Below, in pieces: positions 2,075 to 10,613 of a DNA stretch of 10,613 nucleotides; the first letter of the stretch is position 1; each line of letters starts with the position of its first letter. The translations under genes were made by a program, and so were the position numbers. The stretch comes from an uncultured archaeon (GTDB lineage: Archaea; Asgardarchaeota; Lokiarchaeia; Sigyniarchaeales; Promethearchaeaceae). Below the pieces are notes generated by a model that saw only the letters and a list, made by a program, of their open reading frames with translations, had not been told where the DNA came from and did not search any database. The DNA lies in contig CAYRPF010000037.1 in NCBI GenBank assembly GCA_964426185.1, positions 19,147 to 29,759 of the forward strand, written 5' to 3'.

Positions 2075-2926
2075 TTAAGAAAGATCAGCAAGAAACGCAG
2101 CTACTTCTTCTTTTTCCATTTCTTTTTGCTTACGTTTATCAGCTCTTTCTTTCTTCAAAATTTCTGGTGCAACTTCCTTTAATATCTTGCGGCATTCACA
2201 TTTTTCTTTGCGTTGAATAGGTTCAAAATAAAACGGTTTTTCAAAGCGAAAATCAAACTTAATTAAACCAGGCTTTCGAGGCGGATCAGAGGGAAGAGGC
2301 ATTAGCACTTCTCGAACGCATTTTACCATTAATCCGGCTACAATTTGACTTGTATACACCACACTAGGTTCAGGTTTATAAATACAAGATGTCTCTTGTT
2401 GCAGCTCTTGTTTTTGGACGGACTCAGGAAAGATACAGTTAATACATGGAGTTTTTCTGGATAAAATCCCCACTTGACCTCCAAACCACGATAATCCTCC
2501 ATGAATCATAGGTATATCATTTTGTATACAATAATAATTTAGTATCTTACGAACATGGATTAGATCAACACAATCAATGACTAAATCAACATTTCGAATC
2601 ACAGAATCGATGGTAGATTCTTCTATTTTTTCATCAATCCCAACGATAATTATACCAGAATTTCGCTTTTCTAAGCGCTCGGCTAATATTTCTGCTTTGT
2701 TATGCCCGATATCTTCTTCGCAAAAAAGTGATTGTCGATTTAAATTATGTGATTCAATCGTATCGTAGTCATATATTTTAATTGTACCTATTCCCAAACC
2801 AATAAGGCCCAAACAAACATGATTTCCTAAAGCTCCTGCCCCAATTACTGCTACACGGGCATTAGATAACTTATCTTGATTCCATCCAGAAATTTTAATT
2901 TGTCGGTCATATTTTACGGATGTCAT
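2075..2926 (-). CDS. ThiF/MoeB/E1-family ubiquitin-like activating (adenylating) enzyme
   Basis: YDRQ N-terminal motif, VAVIGAGALG nucleotide-binding loop, DYDTIESHNLNRQ, K77 in GHNKA, IDCVD, Zn ligands C161xxC164 and C243xC245, and candidate thioester Cys181 (ETSC) on the crossover loop. No rhodanese domain. Confidence 0.95.
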   Translation of the reverse strand: MTSVKYDRQIKISGWNQDKLSNARVAVIGAGALGNHVCLGLIGLGIGTIKIYDYDTIESHNLNRQSLFCEEDIGHNKAEILAERLEKRNSGIIIVGIDEKIEESTIDSVIRNVDLVIDCVDLIHVRKILNYYCIQNDIPMIHGGLSWFGGQVGILSRKTPCINCIFPESVQKQELQQETSCIYKPEPSVVYTSQIVAGLMVKCVREVLMPLPSDPPRKPGLIKFDFRFEKPFYFEPIQRKEKCECRKILKEVAPEILKKERADKRKQKEMEKEEVAAFLADLS

Positions 2927-3614
2927 ATTTTTTTCTCTTTTTCTCTAATTTTTTTGATTCAAAGTGAATTTTTGTTTTTAATTCTTCACGAATTTTCCGG
3001 CGAATTTCATGTTCATCCCAATCAAAGGGAGTTGGTAAAATCCGAAAATCTGCAGGTTCGTGAAATATCTTTCCAGTAAAAACTTGTGTGCTAACAATTC
3101 CAAATCGATTTCTCTGCAAATTTACTGTCATTCCATAAGCATATTTAACTTGGATTCCATTCCAAAATCTGAAGTTTGAAGTTTCACTCAAAATCGTATG
3201 TTGGTTTGAATAGTCAGTTCCTGAAAAGAAAACGGCCAAATTTCCATGGGAATGGGTCCAGCCTAGCACTGTAATATGATTGGTTCGAATATAGGATGTG
3301 AGTTGGAGAATTGCATCGGTTTCCACATTTACAAATGCATAATGAACGGTTTGCCTTGGAATAAGAACATCCTCAATAATGTGATTATTTCCTACTGCTA
3401 AAGCATAGACTTCCACTTGATTTTCAGTCAAATTAGTGACTTCTTCTGCCATAACATACATTTTTTCTAAAGCATATTCTGTTAATGGAATTTCTGTAAG
3501 AGGTGTAAATCCATTCAAAACTTCGGATGATTCAATTTGAGTTTTTTCAGGAGATGATTCAGAATTAATCAAATTTTCTATGGAATCTCCAACTATAATA
3601 CCTTTTTTATTCAT
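2907..3614 (-). CDS. JAB/MPN+/Mov34 (JAMM) zinc metalloprotease, deubiquitinase-like
   Basis: E68 (VEVYALAVG) plus GWT-H121-S-H123-GNLAVFF-S131-GT-D134, an exact E-xn-H-x-H-x7-S-x2-D JAMM motif. The 3' end overlaps the E1 start by 20 nt. Confidence 0.92.
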   Translation of the reverse strand: MNKKGIIVGDSIENLINSESSPEKTQIESSEVLNGFTPLTEIPLTEYALEKMYVMAEEVTNLTENQVEVYALAVGNNHIIEDVLIPRQTVHYAFVNVETDAILQLTSYIRTNHITVLGWTHSHGNLAVFFSGTDYSNQHTILSETSNFRFWNGIQVKYAYGMTVNLQRNRFGIVSTQVFTGKIFHEPADFRILPTPFDWDEHEIRRKIREELKTKIHFESKKLEKKRKKYDIRKI

Positions 3615-3630
3615 TTTTATCTACTTAAAT

Positions 3631-4446
3631 TTAATTTGTGGATGAATCTGCATTTTTTTTCAAGTAAGGAGCATATTGCGAAGTTCCTAAATGACCATTT
3701 GCAGGTGAAACATCACGATTATATCCCGTGATAAGGATTTGGACCGCTTGTCGCATTAAACTACTTAAATTGTTGGCAAAACGTAGACGATTAAAAGCTT
3801 TCTCGTCTGAAGAATGATAGAAACTACCCATACAAATTTTTTGACCAAAATTATAGTTGTCTCGATATACAAAAGGATGTTCATAAAATGGAGGGTTATT
3901 TTCTGCAATTACTTCAGGATTCATTAGATGGAAGTTTTCATCAATTCGAACTGCAATCGTGCATGGAGGCATTTGATAAACAAATTTCTCAAAATGAATT
4001 TGATAAGAAGACAAATATCGGATAGCAGCCAATGCTTTTTTGCTTCGATCACGGATCAATTCTTTCATAACAAAGATTATGTGATTTTCAGTTAAGTTTG
4101 CAATATCTTGAGCAGGAATTTTTTGGTATAATTCAATAAGCGTTTTTCTTTCTCCTACAACATTTTTGATATGTTGATTGTAGACGGTTATAATTTCTTT
4201 CAAACGGCCTTTTAACTTCAAACCTTTCAAAGTAGTATATATTATCCCGTTAAAAATAACAATATCTTCTCTTTCAAGTAATCTTTGAAGGTTAGATTGC
4301 GAAGAGGGGGGTAGTTTTTTGCCAAATTCGATAAAATCGGATAAAAACATTATCGGATGAAGCTGATAGATCTTTCCTTCCTTGACAAAGCTTATTCCTT
4401 GATGAGGAGTTAAAATATCTTGAATTTCTTCCGTTAATGTTTTCAT
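3631..4446 (-). CDS. Putative divergent E2/UBC-fold conjugating enzyme with an N-terminal extension
   Basis: C-terminal P-F-Y-E-H190-P-F-V...G-Q-K-I-C205-M-G followed by a long helix resembles the E2 signature P-x-x-x-H-P-N-(I/V)...G-x-I-C-L. The gene lies 16 nt upstream of JAB, in the same direction as JAB and E1. The CDS itself is well supported; the E2 call is an inference. Confidence 0.65.
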   Translation of the reverse strand: MKTLTEEIQDILTPHQGISFVKEGKIYQLHPIMFLSDFIEFGKKLPPSSQSNLQRLLEREDIVIFNGIIYTTLKGLKLKGRLKEIITVYNQHIKNVVGERKTLIELYQKIPAQDIANLTENHIIFVMKELIRDRSKKALAAIRYLSSYQIHFEKFVYQMPPCTIAVRIDENFHLMNPEVIAENNPPFYEHPFVYRDNYNFGQKICMGSFYHSSDEKAFNRLRFANNLSSLMRQAVQILITGYNRDVSPANGHLGTSQYAPYLKKNADSSTN

Positions 4447-4540: not shown

Positions 4541-5260
4541 ATGGTGTTTTTAAATACTTATATGTTTACACTTTCTACCCGTACAAGTTGGCAAAAACAG
4601 CCCACGCGTGTGGATTTATCCGATATGAAAGAGATTCTTTATCCTTATCCTTTGATAGAACGTAAATTTTTCGATGATTTAATGCATTTATGTCGCAGTC
4701 AGACGCATTACTATGTTGAAATGGGATTAATCAGCGTGCTTGATGGACAACATCACCAATTAAACCCTGATACTTGGATTTTAATTTGGGCATTAGACTT
4801 TAAAGATCGATTGTATCAAATTTTGCTGGATAGAAACCCCCAACATGGAGGAAAAGGAGCCATCGCGGCAGTTGGTCCAAAAGACTTGGGAGAATTTTTT
4901 GGACGGATGAAGAAAAATGCTATTTTACCTTTACTTACTCTAATCAATACTCCCGAAAAGATGAAATCTGTGGGTGTAATTGTTTCACGTCCTAAATCCT
5001 ACCGCAATCAGCAAAAAGAAAAGCAAGAATTTCAAGCTTTTGCCCGATTTCAAAAATGGATTGCCCAATTAAAAGCCACTCCCAATAAGGAAGGACAATG
5101 GTTTCCTAGTTCGGCACCTAAATGCCCTATTTGTGGTAATCCTTTAGTAGGTATTTTAGATTCGTATCGGATCGGTTTTGGATATATGATATGCCCCGAA
5201 TGCGGTCATTCTGAAAGAAGACAAATTGGGAAGTCGAATAATAATAAGCCGATTATATAA
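4541..5260 (+). CDS. Hypothetical protein with a C-terminal C4 zinc ribbon
   Basis: 239-aa ORF (alternative ATG at 4562). CPICG...CPECG (CxxC-x19-CxxC) near the C-terminus. N-terminal alpha/beta region not recognised. Confidence 0.8.
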   Translation: MVFLNTYMFTLSTRTSWQKQPTRVDLSDMKEILYPYPLIERKFFDDLMHLCRSQTHYYVEMGLISVLDGQHHQLNPDTWILIWALDFKDRLYQILLDRNPQHGGKGAIAAVGPKDLGEFFGRMKKNAILPLLTLINTPEKMKSVGVIVSRPKSYRNQQKEKQEFQAFARFQKWIAQLKATPNKEGQWFPSSAPKCPICGNPLVGILDSYRIGFGYMICPECGHSERRQIGKSNNNKPII

Positions 5261-6090: not shown

Positions 6091-6333
6091 TCAATTTAAA
6101 TTGTAATGATTTTTAAGTAATTCCGATAGGTTGATTTCATACCGATTGGCAATTTCCATGAATTCAATCAAGTAATCCCCCAAAATATTTTCGATTTCTG
6201 GTTTTGTATCATTTTCTAAAGCAAGTTTTAGCTTTCCATGCATATTTGTCAATTTTTCTGTTATATCATATAAATCTGGTTGGTGATCGAATTTGTGTAA
6301 GTTTTTTAGGAATTTTTGAACTTTTTCTAACAT
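6091..6333 (-). CDS. Small MazG-like (all-alpha NTP pyrophosphatase fold) protein, apparently degenerate; probable start 6333 rather than 6396
   Basis: EIENILGDYLIEFMEIANRYEINLSELL follows the MazG-like pattern EEELGDxLxxLxxLANxxxIDL. TATA-like TTTAAATA on - (6361-6354) fits a leaderless start at ATG 6333 (80 aa). Confidence 0.6.
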   Translation of the reverse strand: MLEKVQKFLKNLHKFDHQPDLYDITEKLTNMHGKLKLALENDTKPEIENILGDYLIEFMEIANRYEINLSELLKNHYNLN

Positions 6334-6353
6334 AAAAGAAATATAATCGCATT

Positions 6354-6361
6354 TATTTAAA
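6354..6361 (-). promoter_or_regulatory. Candidate archaeal TATA box for the MazG-like/GDPD transcript
   Basis: TTTAAATA begins 28 nt upstream of ATG 6333. The AT-rich background lowers specificity. Confidence 0.45.
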
Positions 6362-6427
6362 AATGTAAGCATCCCTACATTTTCGCTTTCCAGCATCCTT
6401 ACTTCCTCCCAACATCCTTACATTCTC
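6360..6427. repeat. Three imperfect 15-nt direct repeats plus an 8-bp inverted repeat in the divergent intergenic region
   Basis: CATCCCTACATTTTC (6370-6384), CATCCTTACTTCCTC (6394-6408) and CATCCTTACATTCTC (6413-6427); AAAATGTA-N8-TACATTTT (6360-6383). Confidence 0.7.
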
Positions 6428-8340: not shown

Positions 8341-10613
8341 TTATTTTAATAATTTTTGGCGGCGATATGAAGGTGCAATTTTTGAAACCACTAACACACA
8401 AGGAATTATGAGCCAAATTATTGGAAATCCTGGAATAGTAAATGTTTCAAATGGATTTTCTTCATCATTTGTATTATTTTCCTCAACGGTGTGGCGAAAT
8501 TCAATAGTTCCTTGTAATGTAGCTATTGAAAATATCTCTCCGTCATCTGCATGTATTTCCAGATAATAAACTCCTTCTGGATAATCATTTGTATTAAAAG
8601 TGTATACCTCTCGTGTCAAACCTTCCACAATTTTTAACCATGATACTCCATCAGTTGAAATAAAGATTGCATATGTTAATGGATCATTATCAGGATCCGA
8701 CCCATCCCAAGAAAATGTGACTTGTCCTTGAAGGATTTCTCCGCCAGTTGGATAAAGAATTACAACTTCGGGGGGGTCATTTACATCCACCAGCCATTCA
8801 AAATGTTTATGGTTCCAACTTCCATGTTCATTTAGTACCCACACGTCCAGGGTATGAATTCCATCAAAATTGGGAACTGCGGTGAGAATTGTGGAATTTG
8901 GTTGTCCATCCCAACTATAATAAGCAATAACTGGATCCTCTGAGAAACTTAGACTAATCTCTTGATAACCTGCAATGATAGTGTTGTTTTGTGGATAAAG
9001 CAAGGTGATATCGATTAGAGGATTTGCAACAATCAAAATTAAAGTGGCTGAAAGAGTTTCAGAATCCTCATCCGAAATCCAGATGTTAAGTGAATGCTGA
9101 CCATCCAAGATTGGTGTGGTTGGCCATTGACCTAATGGCGCTTCGATATATGGGGCTTCATCCCATGCATAGAAATAATTGCCTAAAGTACCCTTTATAG
9201 TCATGTTAATAGTTACATTACTTTCCACGACAGTTCCATTAGTCCAAGTTATAAAATCGATCATTAATGGATCATCGGTCAAGAAAGTGAAATTTGCATA
9301 GGTCCAATAAGGTACAAAATCTGCCACCCATACATGCAAAATGTGATATCCATTTCCGACAGGTAAGATAGGGTTTTGAGTGAAATTTTTCCCTCCATCC
9401 CATGAAAAAATCAATTGACTATATGCTTCTGAGATAGATAATTGAATTTCAATCCCACTATTCAACCCAATAAATTCTTCAGGGGAGACCAGAGTAATAC
9501 TGGGAGGAATATCATCGATGGTAAATGTGAAGGTCGTGATACGCTCAATCCTTGTATCGGACACAGTTCGGATTTGTAGCGTGTGGAGACCTTGTTCTGT
9601 TGGTATGGGAGGAAGGGTATTTGACTCGGGTTCACTATCCCATGCATAATAGACTTCGGTGGGAGGACGGCTAAATGTAATATTGAGTTCAAACGAACTG
9701 GGGATGACATCACCGTCCTCACAATTTTCCAAATAGACGAAAATCTGACTATCATCAACTTCAAATGAAAATGTCGTGTAATTTGCATTTCCCGCGGCGT
9801 CTGTGGTCCAAATTTCGAGGATATGCCAACCATTCCCAGCAGGTATCGGTGAAAGAATAGTGCTACTGGGAGCACCGTCCCATGCATAGAAGACTGTTTG
9901 CGGGGTTTCTGAAAACGCGAATTCCAACATACGCCCACTGGCGGTTCGTGAATTATTGCTCAGATCTGCAGGCCCTATCAACGTAGTGATAATAGGTGTG
10001 TTATCGATTTCAATATTGAAGAATATTTCCCAAGCATTTGAGTGAATATCAATACCTTGAACTACGAATAAATAGGACCCATCTGCATACATGCGGGTAT
10101 CTAATTGAAAATCGAAATCAAAAGTTCCATTTTTCCAGAATTTATCACTTGAGATGTCTTCATTGTAAATAGTTGTGTCATTAAAATGAAGTTGGATATT
10201 TTTCATTCCTCGGTCATCAATGGCTGTTATATGCATATTTATTATGCCGTTATAAACCTCCCCATCGCTGATTCCATCCGCTGTAAGCGTTGCACATGTA
10301 ATATCTTCAGGAATGTCCATAAAATCGAGGGGATCGGTGCCGAACTGAATTTCTTCACCATCTCCATAACCGTCACCGTCTGTATCTGGGTTATGTGGGT
10401 CTGTGGCATAGATTTGAGTTTCGGTCGAATCACTTAAGCCATCCATATCATAATCATCTCCCACTAAGAAAGATGTGTTATCCAATTCGATCGTCCCCCA
10501 CTGCACGTTTTTATCACTAATAAATGAATGATCGGAAGCATTGAGATGTTGAACATTGAGGAACATAACCGTGATATCGGAGTGCTGGACGGTGAGCGAA
10601 TATATGGTGGAAT
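8341..10613 (-). CDS. Large cell-surface glycoprotein, 5'-truncated by the window: Ca-binding DxDxDG (thrombospondin type 3-like) repeats, tandem Ig-like repeats and a Loki-CTERM/PGF-CTERM-like sorting signal
   Basis: The frame stays open upstream of ATG 10566 to the edge (STIYSLTVQHSDITV), so the true start is probably outside the window. Contains DYDMDGLSD...TDPHNPDTDGDGYGDGEE...GTDPLD, five ~80-aa Y(A/S)WD...GxHxL repeats and many N-x-S/T sequons. Ends IPGFP + hydrophobic stretch + RRQKLLK. Confidence 0.88.
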   Translation of the reverse strand, partial: STIYSLTVQHSDITVMFLNVQHLNASDHSFISDKNVQWGTIELDNTSFLVGDDYDMDGLSDSTETQIYATDPHNPDTDGDGYGDGEEIQFGTDPLDFMDIPEDITCATLTADGISDGEVYNGIINMHITAIDDRGMKNIQLHFNDTTIYNEDISSDKFWKNGTFDFDFQLDTRMYADGSYLFVVQGIDIHSNAWEIFFNIEIDNTPIITTLIGPADLSNNSRTASGRMLEFAFSETPQTVFYAWDGAPSSTILSPIPAGNGWHILEIWTTDAAGNANYTTFSFEVDDSQIFVYLENCEDGDVIPSSFELNITFSRPPTEVYYAWDSEPESNTLPPIPTEQGLHTLQIRTVSDTRIERITTFTFTIDDIPPSITLVSPEEFIGLNSGIEIQLSISEAYSQLIFSWDGGKNFTQNPILPVGNGYHILHVWVADFVPYWTYANFTFLTDDPLMIDFITWTNGTVVESNVTINMTIKGTLGNYFYAWDEAPYIEAPLGQWPTTPILDGQHSLNIWISDEDSETLSATLILIVANPLIDITLLYPQNNTIIAGYQEISLSFSEDPVIAYYSWDGQPNSTILTAVPNFDGIHTLDVWVLNEHGSWNHKHFEWLVDVNDPPEVVILYPTGGEILQGQVTFSWDGSDPDNDPLTYAIFISTDGVSWLKIVEGLTREVYTFNTNDYPEGVYYLEIHADDGEIFSIATLQGTIEFRHTVEENNTNDEENPFETFTIPGFPIIWLIIPCVLVVSKIAPSYRRQKLLK

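Follow-up and report, generated by a model that had tools for sequence, protein, structure and literature searches.

The locus described here raises the question of whether an archaeal gene without any family assignment encodes an E2, the carrier and conjugating enzyme of a Ubl tagging system, and to which system such an enzyme would belong. The gene lies in a stretch of 10,613 nucleotides from an uncultured archaeon of the Lokiarchaeia, the whole of which was analysed and is called the window below. Canonical E2s have a His-Cys spacing of 10 according to the textbooks, and the Asn of their HPN triad is important. A sequence-only reading of the gene had proposed a possibly undescribed E2 subfamily, annotated as hypothetical, with a divergent active site in which HPF replaces HPN and the His and the Cys stand further apart. 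Our verdict is that the protein represents a sequence-novel E2 family, called E2L here, within a second Ubl system of Lokiarchaeia. The features of the gene are as follows:

3631..4446, minus strand: E2-like gene (P0001), 271 aa, defined by its ORF and translation, homologues and an AF2 model
3658..4149, minus strand: UBC/E2-fold domain of P0001, residues 100-263, as delimited by VIA-align
3871..3879, minus strand: H190-P191-F192, counterpart of the canonical HPN triad, from the translation and family alignment
3832..3834, minus strand: Cys205, candidate thioester-forming catalytic Cys in an [IV]-C-x-G motif, from conservation

Translation of window positions 3832-3879 on the minus strand gives HPFVYRDNYNFGQKIC, in which H190 and C205 are 15 residues apart, as had been described, and the ORF list of the window holds no rival frame of at least 60 aa on the opposite strand. 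The protein consists of an N-terminal domain (about residues 1-99) followed by the C-terminal UBC-fold domain. A word-indexed search returned 32 homologues at 48-77% identity, none of them with a Pfam domain, and phmmer, run exhaustively over 1.84 billion representatives, matched just 29 clusters at the 50% level. Conservation was read from two alignments, A1 with the 32 close homologues and A2 with 23 cluster representatives of the divergent set, down to 20-25% identity. H190, P191 and C205 are all invariant in A1. The sole invariant residues of A2 are P160, Y188, H190, C205 and G241, with counts of 23/23 for both H190 and C205, 22/23 for G207 and 20/23 for P191, which is Met in the other three. 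The upstream His and the Cys are also kept in three further Asgard lineages (YLHPFMVEAGAICMG, YVHPFLIEAGAICLG and YIHPFVYTTGPPYKICLG), and H252, downstream of Cys205, is found in 19/23 members and is lost in L091/L092. Because H190 and C205 are invariant in both sets, their conservation is far beyond chance. The sequence-only reading had made its proposal depend on the conservation of C205, which was borne out in all 32 close homologues and all 23 divergent representatives; the joint invariance of H190, P191 and C205 that it also looked for stands for the His and the Cys and fails for the Pro in the divergent set.

The third position of the triad behaves differently. Residue 192 is Phe in 21/23 members of A2, Tyr in 2/23 and Asn in 0/23, and the family therefore keeps the His and mostly the Pro of HPN, with an aromatic residue in third place. 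The replacement of HPN by HP[F/Y] is a trait of the whole E2L family, and in this respect the divergent active site first seen in a single gene has been extended to its relatives. The same replacement could point to an active E2 whose discharge is altered by the Asn-to-Phe change, with a non-lysine acceptor (Ser/Thr/Cys, an N-terminus or a lipid) or with direct, E3-independent transfer. Fixation of HP[FY] across the family would agree with such a shift, as would the lack of an E3 gene, and bacterial E2 chemistry can indeed move in this way, since Bub works via oxyester intermediates (PMC11601596). However, the sequence is silent on the identity of the acceptor, and the downstream P-A-N-G-H loop, which offers a possible substitute Asn/His, was rejected as a universal stand-in for the HPN Asn because other lineages (L091/L092) have EPAIGIFDP in its place. 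Several working E2-like enzymes, namely UFC1, ATG3 and ATG10, also do without this Asn. Altered discharge is therefore considered unlikely.

The other half of the proposed divergence, a long His-Cys spacing that sets the family apart, did not hold. The spacing among E2L members is 10, 11, 13, 14, 15, 16, 17 or 18, and it is 10 in the most distant members, including those from other Asgard classes. The comparison set was formed by the Pfam-positive UQ_con E2s of the window genome and 29 relatives, in which every motif-bearing protein has a spacing of 15 (HPNIDSSIPPGKINIC) or 17. Since the UQ_con E2s of the same organisms share these values, the long loop is a lineage-specific length that is ordinary in Lokiarchaeia and no mark of the E2L family, and the active-site oddity of P0001 is smaller than first supposed. 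The canonical Lokiarchaeial UQ_con E2s (L010:66-611 on the minus strand, which is G000:C85, and L011-L039) form two groups with unusually long His-Cys loops, one of 15 residues and one of 17 residues (HPNFWPKPSEYxGQRNIC).

The fold of the protein was approached through an AF2 model built on A1, with a mean pLDDT of 84. When the model was aligned by VIA-align with 48,161 representative chains, ranks 1-42 were all of E2/UEV/UFC1/Cap2/Bub type (top Z 7.3), and rescoring of Foldseek's 1000 best chains gave UBE2S 6s96_A as the best match (Z 8.2, rmsd 3.9, 127 of 149 residues) with 221 chains at a Z of at least 5; a Z of 7-8 is "middling" on the tool's own scale, and the argument for an E2 fold is drawn from the single superfamily that fills the match list and from a match that spans the whole UBC core, not from the absolute Z. 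E2S, Pex4, UbcH5, UBE2G2, UBC12, UFC1, the Tsg101 UEV, BubCD, Cap2 and CdnG-E2 are found among the 42 top ranks, and all of these ranks cover model residues ~100-263. The N-terminal helix, antiparallel beta meander and crossover helix of the UBC core are present in the model. Around the motif, a beta strand (174-181), Y-x-H-P-F, a hairpin (193-204), Cys205, a short helix (207-211) and a helix at 223-243 are modelled in succession, so that Cys205 lies between the hairpin and the short helix, after the beta4 loop; this matches the canonical E2 order of beta4, Y-x-H-P-[FY], hairpin, [IV]-C-x-G, short helix and long crossover helix. The segments YQIHF and CTIAVRID, which had been called strand-like, are modelled as beta strands (E148-152 and E162-168), and the long helix expected after the Cys is the one at 223-243. 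An added hairpin (148-159) and the absence of the last two canonical E2 helices (alpha3/alpha4) are peculiarities of the model. Thus, as far as the model goes, the C-terminal half of P0001 is a UBC/E2 fold, and the UBC-like character anticipated for it was recovered.

Other structural searches were less sharp. In Foldseek with the whole model against the PDB, the E2/UEV rows were sub-threshold and mixed with noise, and the Atlas shape search was uninformative (TM<0.5). Atlas structure rows include UEV clusters at TM 0.46-0.50, and Prok-E2_D appears there only as a lead, with 11% of one cluster at a score of 0.89 and TM 0.45. The N-terminal domain (1-99) gave only short helical coincidences in VIA-align, at Z 4.3-4.5. 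The UEV clusters in the Atlas rows, together with fold matches to an RWD domain and to the UEV domains of Tsg101 and Vps23 (Z 4.3-6.5), lend some weight to the alternative that P0001 is an inert UEV/RWD-like adaptor with an E2 fold, which would bind the Ubl or recruit targets to the E1/JAB pair while Cys205 would be structural. The family also lacks the HPN Asn, and archaeal SAMP systems manage conjugation without an E2, as in Haloferax SAMP/UbaA. Nevertheless, UEV and RWD domains no longer possess the Cys (PMC1779556), whereas in E2L the Cys and its upstream His are invariant at ~20% identity and [IV]-C-x-G is kept, and an inert adaptor is regarded as very unlikely.

The sequence of the family has escaped the usual catalogues. 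P0001 has no Pfam match at E<=0.1, and none of the 23 E2L members has an hmmscan match at E<=1, which includes UQ_con (PF00179) and Prok-E2_A to Prok-E2_E. PADLOC gave no match to P0001 either, and an E2L profile run against PDB sequences recovered nothing relevant and no BilB chain, just an LSm match at E=1.3. By hhalign, E2L and 30 Asgard UQ_con proteins were aligned without significance (probability 0.2%, E=0.29), with HPF nevertheless in register with HPN and IC with IC. No sequence link of E2L to any E2 family is therefore statistically significant. From the order of the modelled elements and this non-significant profile alignment, we infer that H190 and C205 occupy the canonical E2 His and Cys positions. 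The orthologues DSAG12_00952 / WP_147662051 (MK-D1) and NEF87_003303 (L. ossiferum) are called "hypothetical protein" in GenBank and UniRef, and no published description of an archaeal E2L family came up in a literature search of incomplete coverage, whether by topic or by locus tag. On these points the first suspicion of an undescribed subfamily hidden under a hypothetical annotation has proved sound.

Related loci are found in Candidatus Harpocratesius repetitus (70%), Promethearchaeum syntrophicum MK-D1 (57%), Lokiarchaeum ossiferum (54%) and other Promethearchaeota MAGs. The distribution is patchy: in a phylum-wide sample, E2L is found in 8/301 genomes, among which three other families are represented by one genome each. 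In one relative the E2-like gene is present as a tandem pair (L081/L083, G005:C136:4815-6475).

If P0001 is an E2, its neighbours should tell which system it serves. Three genes follow it on the same strand:

2907..3614, minus strand: JAMM/MPN+ metalloprotease (P0002), candidate Ubl-processing/deconjugating enzyme, from Pfam and motif
2075..2926, minus strand: compact ThiF-type E1 (P0003), 283 aa, from PF00899
1169..2071, minus strand: fourth operon gene (P0004), 300 aa, helical, fast-evolving, from synteny

The E2-like gene is separated by a 16-nt gap from the JAMM gene, which overlaps the ThiF E1 gene by 20 nt, and P0004 follows after 3 nt. P0002 has weak Prok-JAB and JAB matches in Pfam, and its residues E68, H121, S122, H123, S131 and D134 are invariant in 10 divergent orthologues. 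P0003 matches PF00899 with E=1.9e-53 through a single ThiF domain (residues 6-244), and its invariant positions are the GxGxxG nucleotide loop, C161/C164 and C243/C245 (a CxxC...CxC zinc site) and C181 in the crossover region. P0004 shows 23-37% identity over 8 syntenic Lokiarchaeial loci, where mostly the first ~100 residues alone align, and no homologue of it turned up next to the operon in the other Asgard lineages.

The E2L-JAB-E1 order is kept in 8 Lokiarchaeial loci, within a wider synteny in which an FGGY kinase, a small protein, a GDPD and a zinc-ribbon protein stand divergent from E2L-JAB-E1-P4-P10. In the loci read, the JAB gene comes directly after the E2-like gene, with the exceptions of L005, which has no JAB, and L086, which passes straight to ThiF. 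At L005:5989-7763, in an uncultured relative, the E1 gene directly follows the E2-like gene and leaves no space for a JAMM gene. Distant E2L homologues adjoin a JAB homologue (BLASTP 4e-18) and, in L086 and L087, a ThiF gene. A prediction of the E1-E2L complex gave a weak signal, with an ipSAE of 0.38 against 0.00 for the best control, in a range (passes at <=0.60) that took in 7/80 solved complexes as well as the two passing mismatched pairs; the partners had a pLDDT of at least 74 and the runs shared at least 68% of contacts.

The compact E1 also invites a different reading of the operon, as a sulfur-carrier pathway in which the E1 would thiocarboxylate a Gly-Gly protein, the JAMM enzyme would trim or hydrolyse it and Cys205 would relay the sulfur. 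P0003 is of MoeB/ThiF type, with only 283 aa and CxxC...CxC zinc ligands, and JAMM proteases are known to trim precursors with Gly-Gly plus extra residues in sulfur-carrier systems such as CysO/Mec+ and QbsE/QbsD. Yet thiamine, molybdopterin, cysteine and tRNA-thiolation genes are missing both from the window and from the remaining operons that were read, an E2-fold partner is a hallmark of conjugation systems, and the gene order equals that of Bil, a protein conjugator. Sulfur transfer is thus very unlikely, and the least probable of the alternatives that were considered.

Defence was also kept in view. The Lokiarchaeial locus is vertically syntenic among housekeeping genes, with no visible defence island, and P0002, P0004 and P0005, like P0001, have no PADLOC match. 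In L040/L041, L042/L043 and L084 a distant E2L gene is followed by long JAB fusions (448-736 aa), of which some bear a zinc-ribbon tail. Hardly any gene on the contigs of these loci has a family, and the contigs might be mobile elements or viruses; no relatives of the distant E2L homologues were found in IMG/VR, which has no bearing on a viral origin either way.

P0005, the gene at window 4541-5260 on the plus strand, is divergent from the operon and encodes 239 aa with a C-terminal CPICG...CPECG zinc ribbon. No Pfam family scores above threshold for it, and its conservation (86% to Harpocratesius and 60% to MK-D1) exceeds that of the E2-like gene. It was considered as a core component and rejected, as its only link is a CxxC...CxxC likeness to the zinc ribbon at the tail of a single distant JAB fusion and it has no homologue beside the operon in other lineages. 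Two further genes of the window lie on the minus strand. The 101-aa ORF at 6091-6396 probably starts at an internal Met, as its homologues (80-90 aa) align from residue 22 on only. At 8341-10566 is encoded a 741-aa protein, probably a surface protein, with a TSP3 calcium-binding repeat, Ig-like modules that each carry a "Y(Y/F)(A/S)WD" motif, and a C-terminus (PGF, a hydrophobic stretch and a basic tail) that resembles the archaeal PGF-CTERM sorting signal.

A conjugation system needs a modifier, and the small Gly-Gly-tailed tag that P0001 would carry probably has its gene elsewhere in the genome. One distant E2L homologue is immediately preceded by a 106-aa ORF ending in EQHAGG, and a search of the window genome with this ORF returned two unlinked paralogous genes of ~105 aa:

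G000:C31:25902-26222, plus strand, outside the window: candidate Ubl gene, ending in HHSGG
G000:C11:35510-35815, minus strand, outside the window: candidate Ubl gene, ending in SHSGGF

One of them lies beside a GNAT acetyltransferase gene, the other beside genes for a cyclophilin and a RIO-type kinase. All 17 aligned proteins (A3) end in an invariant H-x-G-G with 0-3 residues after it, and no Pfam family covers them. The tail ...ELDLVTSHSGG has neither Lys nor Arg close by. In structure, the 50 best Foldseek rows for the Ubl model (pLDDT 86) are all ubiquitin, SUMO or NEDD8 (best E=4e-4, probability 1.00), the Caldiarchaeum ubiquitin:Rpn11 complex (6fno) is among the Foldseek matches, and the model reached Z 8.7 in VIA-align. 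Second Ubl copies in two relatives, L066 (G013:C231:4107-4409) and L067 (G012:C16:12628-12930), carry in-frame TAA stops, which suggests that they are decaying paralogues.

Of the 81 genomes of the order, the Ubl and E2L genes were found in an identical set of 11; three further genomes of the same family yielded neither gene, nor did any of the 67 genomes that make up the other three families. This co-occurrence counts as one or few independent events because the 11 genomes are kin. In three other Asgard lineages a Ubl gene of ~110 aa, ending in H-x-G-G, stands directly upstream of E2L, and these families (L091, L092, L093) have a contiguous, co-directional Ubl(H-x-G-G)-E2L-JAB-E1 arrangement. 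Gly-Gly-tailed ORFs near distant E2L homologues were also seen as P0076 in L042, "QQTGG" in L084 and "HAGGLF" in L087, and at two distant loci such an ORF falls within ~2 kb. As the genes are unlinked in the window genome, the assignment of the Ubl there rests on co-occurrence in kin genomes and on adjacency in other lineages. The same genome separately encodes canonical ubiquitin, a UQ_con E2 (G000:C85:90-524) and four other ThiF-type matches, and the E2L cassette is thus an additional system.

On these grounds, namely the fold, the invariance of His190 and Cys205, the conservation of the operon, the ubiquitin fold and Gly-Gly tail of the tag, and the adjacency and co-occurrence of tag and E2L, it is likely that P0001 is the E2 of a second, non-ubiquitin Ubl system in Lokiarchaeia. 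In such a system, the ~105-aa Ubl precursor (...SHSGG plus 0-3 residues) would be trimmed by the JAMM protease P0002 to expose its Gly-Gly, after which the compact ThiF-type E1 P0003 would adenylate the Ubl and probably load it onto Cys181. The Ubl would be handed as a thioester to Cys205 of P0001 and would then move to an amine of a target, and P0002 could also reverse the mark. As the window and the other operons that were read contain no RING/HECT E3 gene, targets may possibly be chosen by the N-terminal domain of P0001, by the helical fourth protein, or by both. The biological role of the Ubl system would be either housekeeping or antiviral.

Such an E2 can be set beside several known families. 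Like the canonical UBC/UQ_con E2s (PF00179), P0001 would have a UBC fold and the order Y/W-H-P-x ... G-x-[IV]-C-[LM], and like the UQ_con E2 of its own genome (HPNIDSSIPPGKINIC) it has a His-Cys spacing of 15. Unlike them, it shows no significant sequence similarity, has Phe/Tyr for the HPN Asn, and is modelled with the extra hairpin (148-159) and the extra N-terminal domain and without the alpha3/alpha4 C-terminal helices. The partners also differ, a JAMM protease and a MoeB-like E1 for P0001 and a Uba1-type E1 and a RING E3 for UQ_con. Haloferax SAMP/UbaA/HvJAMM1 and Caldiarchaeum share with the Asgard cassette an archaeal setting for Ubl conjugation, a compact E1 and a JAMM protease; the SAMP systems are without an E2, whereas the Asgard cassette has an E2-like protein. 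The Caldiarchaeum operon runs Ub-E1-E2-RING-Rpn11 (PMC5654768). Ubiquitin operons of Caldiarchaeum and Asgard archaea contain a recognisable UQ_con E2, true ubiquitin (PF00240) and a RING E3, which the window genome has separately.

In comparison with the Prok-E2 families (PF14457-PF14462), Cap2 of type II CBASS and Bub, the E2 fold, a ThiF-type E1 and, mostly, JAB enzymes are held in common, and P0001 reached VIA-align Z values of 6.5 with BubCD (9eav_D), 5.5 with Cap2 (7to3) and 4.6 with CdnG-E2 (8hsb). The 23 E2L members, however, have no hmmscan match at E<=1 to any of these families, P0001 is not fused to its E1, and where Bub relies on Ser/oxyester chemistry, E2L has an invariant Cys.

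The closest parallel is BilABCD (Bacterial ISG15-like), which corresponds to operon classes 6C/CEHH and 6d of Iyer, Burroughs and Aravind 2006, the latter including a fast-evolving alpha-helical fifth protein (PMC1779556). The Bil operon has the order Ubl-E2-DUB-E1, conjugation depends on both the E2 Cys and the E1 Cys, and its JAB enzyme cuts off the residue that follows the terminal Gly of the Ubl (PMC10557695). The same four components occur in the same order, Ubl-E2-JAB-E1, in Asgard L091-L093, although the Ubl is unlinked in the window's own family. The Ubl of both systems carries extra residues past the terminal Gly for the JAB enzyme, whose removal is proposed for the Asgard system; neither has an E3, both E2s are too diverged for standard models, and P0004 recalls the helical, fast-evolving extra protein of class 6d. 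The differences are also clear. The Asgard host is archaeal, its E1 is a single-domain ThiF protein of 283 aa in place of the ~500-aa IAD+AAD+CYS E1 of Bil, and E2L has an extra ~100-aa N-terminal domain that BilB lacks. BilB/6d proteins have a conserved His downstream of the Cys, while the invariant His of E2L is upstream, as in classical E2s, and no sequence similarity to Bil was detectable in the PADLOC, PDB profile and Pfam searches. E2L is therefore classed as an enzyme of E2 fold within a Bil-like cassette.

Among known prokaryotes the Asgard archaea stand closest to eukaryotes, and their ubiquitin machinery is debated in the context of eukaryogenesis. The present findings indicate that these archaea also carry a Bil-like Ubl-E2-JAB-E1 cassette, one missed entirely by current annotation because its E2, its Ubl and its fourth protein are all without families, and the cassette ties the bacterial "defence" ubiquitination-like systems to archaea. 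A natural HP[F/Y] E2 is likewise a test case for the role of the HPN Asn, and the system is directly testable since orthologues occur in two cultured species, as DSAG12_00952 (MK-D1) and NEF87_003303 (L. ossiferum). Tentatively, and with considerable doubt, Lokiarchaeia, the cultured Promethearchaeum syntrophicum and Lokiarchaeum ossiferum among them, might run a second, self-contained tagging pathway beside their eukaryote-like ubiquitin, with a ~105-aa H-x-G-G modifier, a MoeB-like E1 and an HPF-type E2 whose N-terminal domain would choose targets without an E3. Such a pathway would be an archaeal counterpart of Bil, with an antiviral or an Asgard-specific regulatory function, and possibly with a non-canonical discharge, given the aromatic residue in place of the oxyanion Asn.
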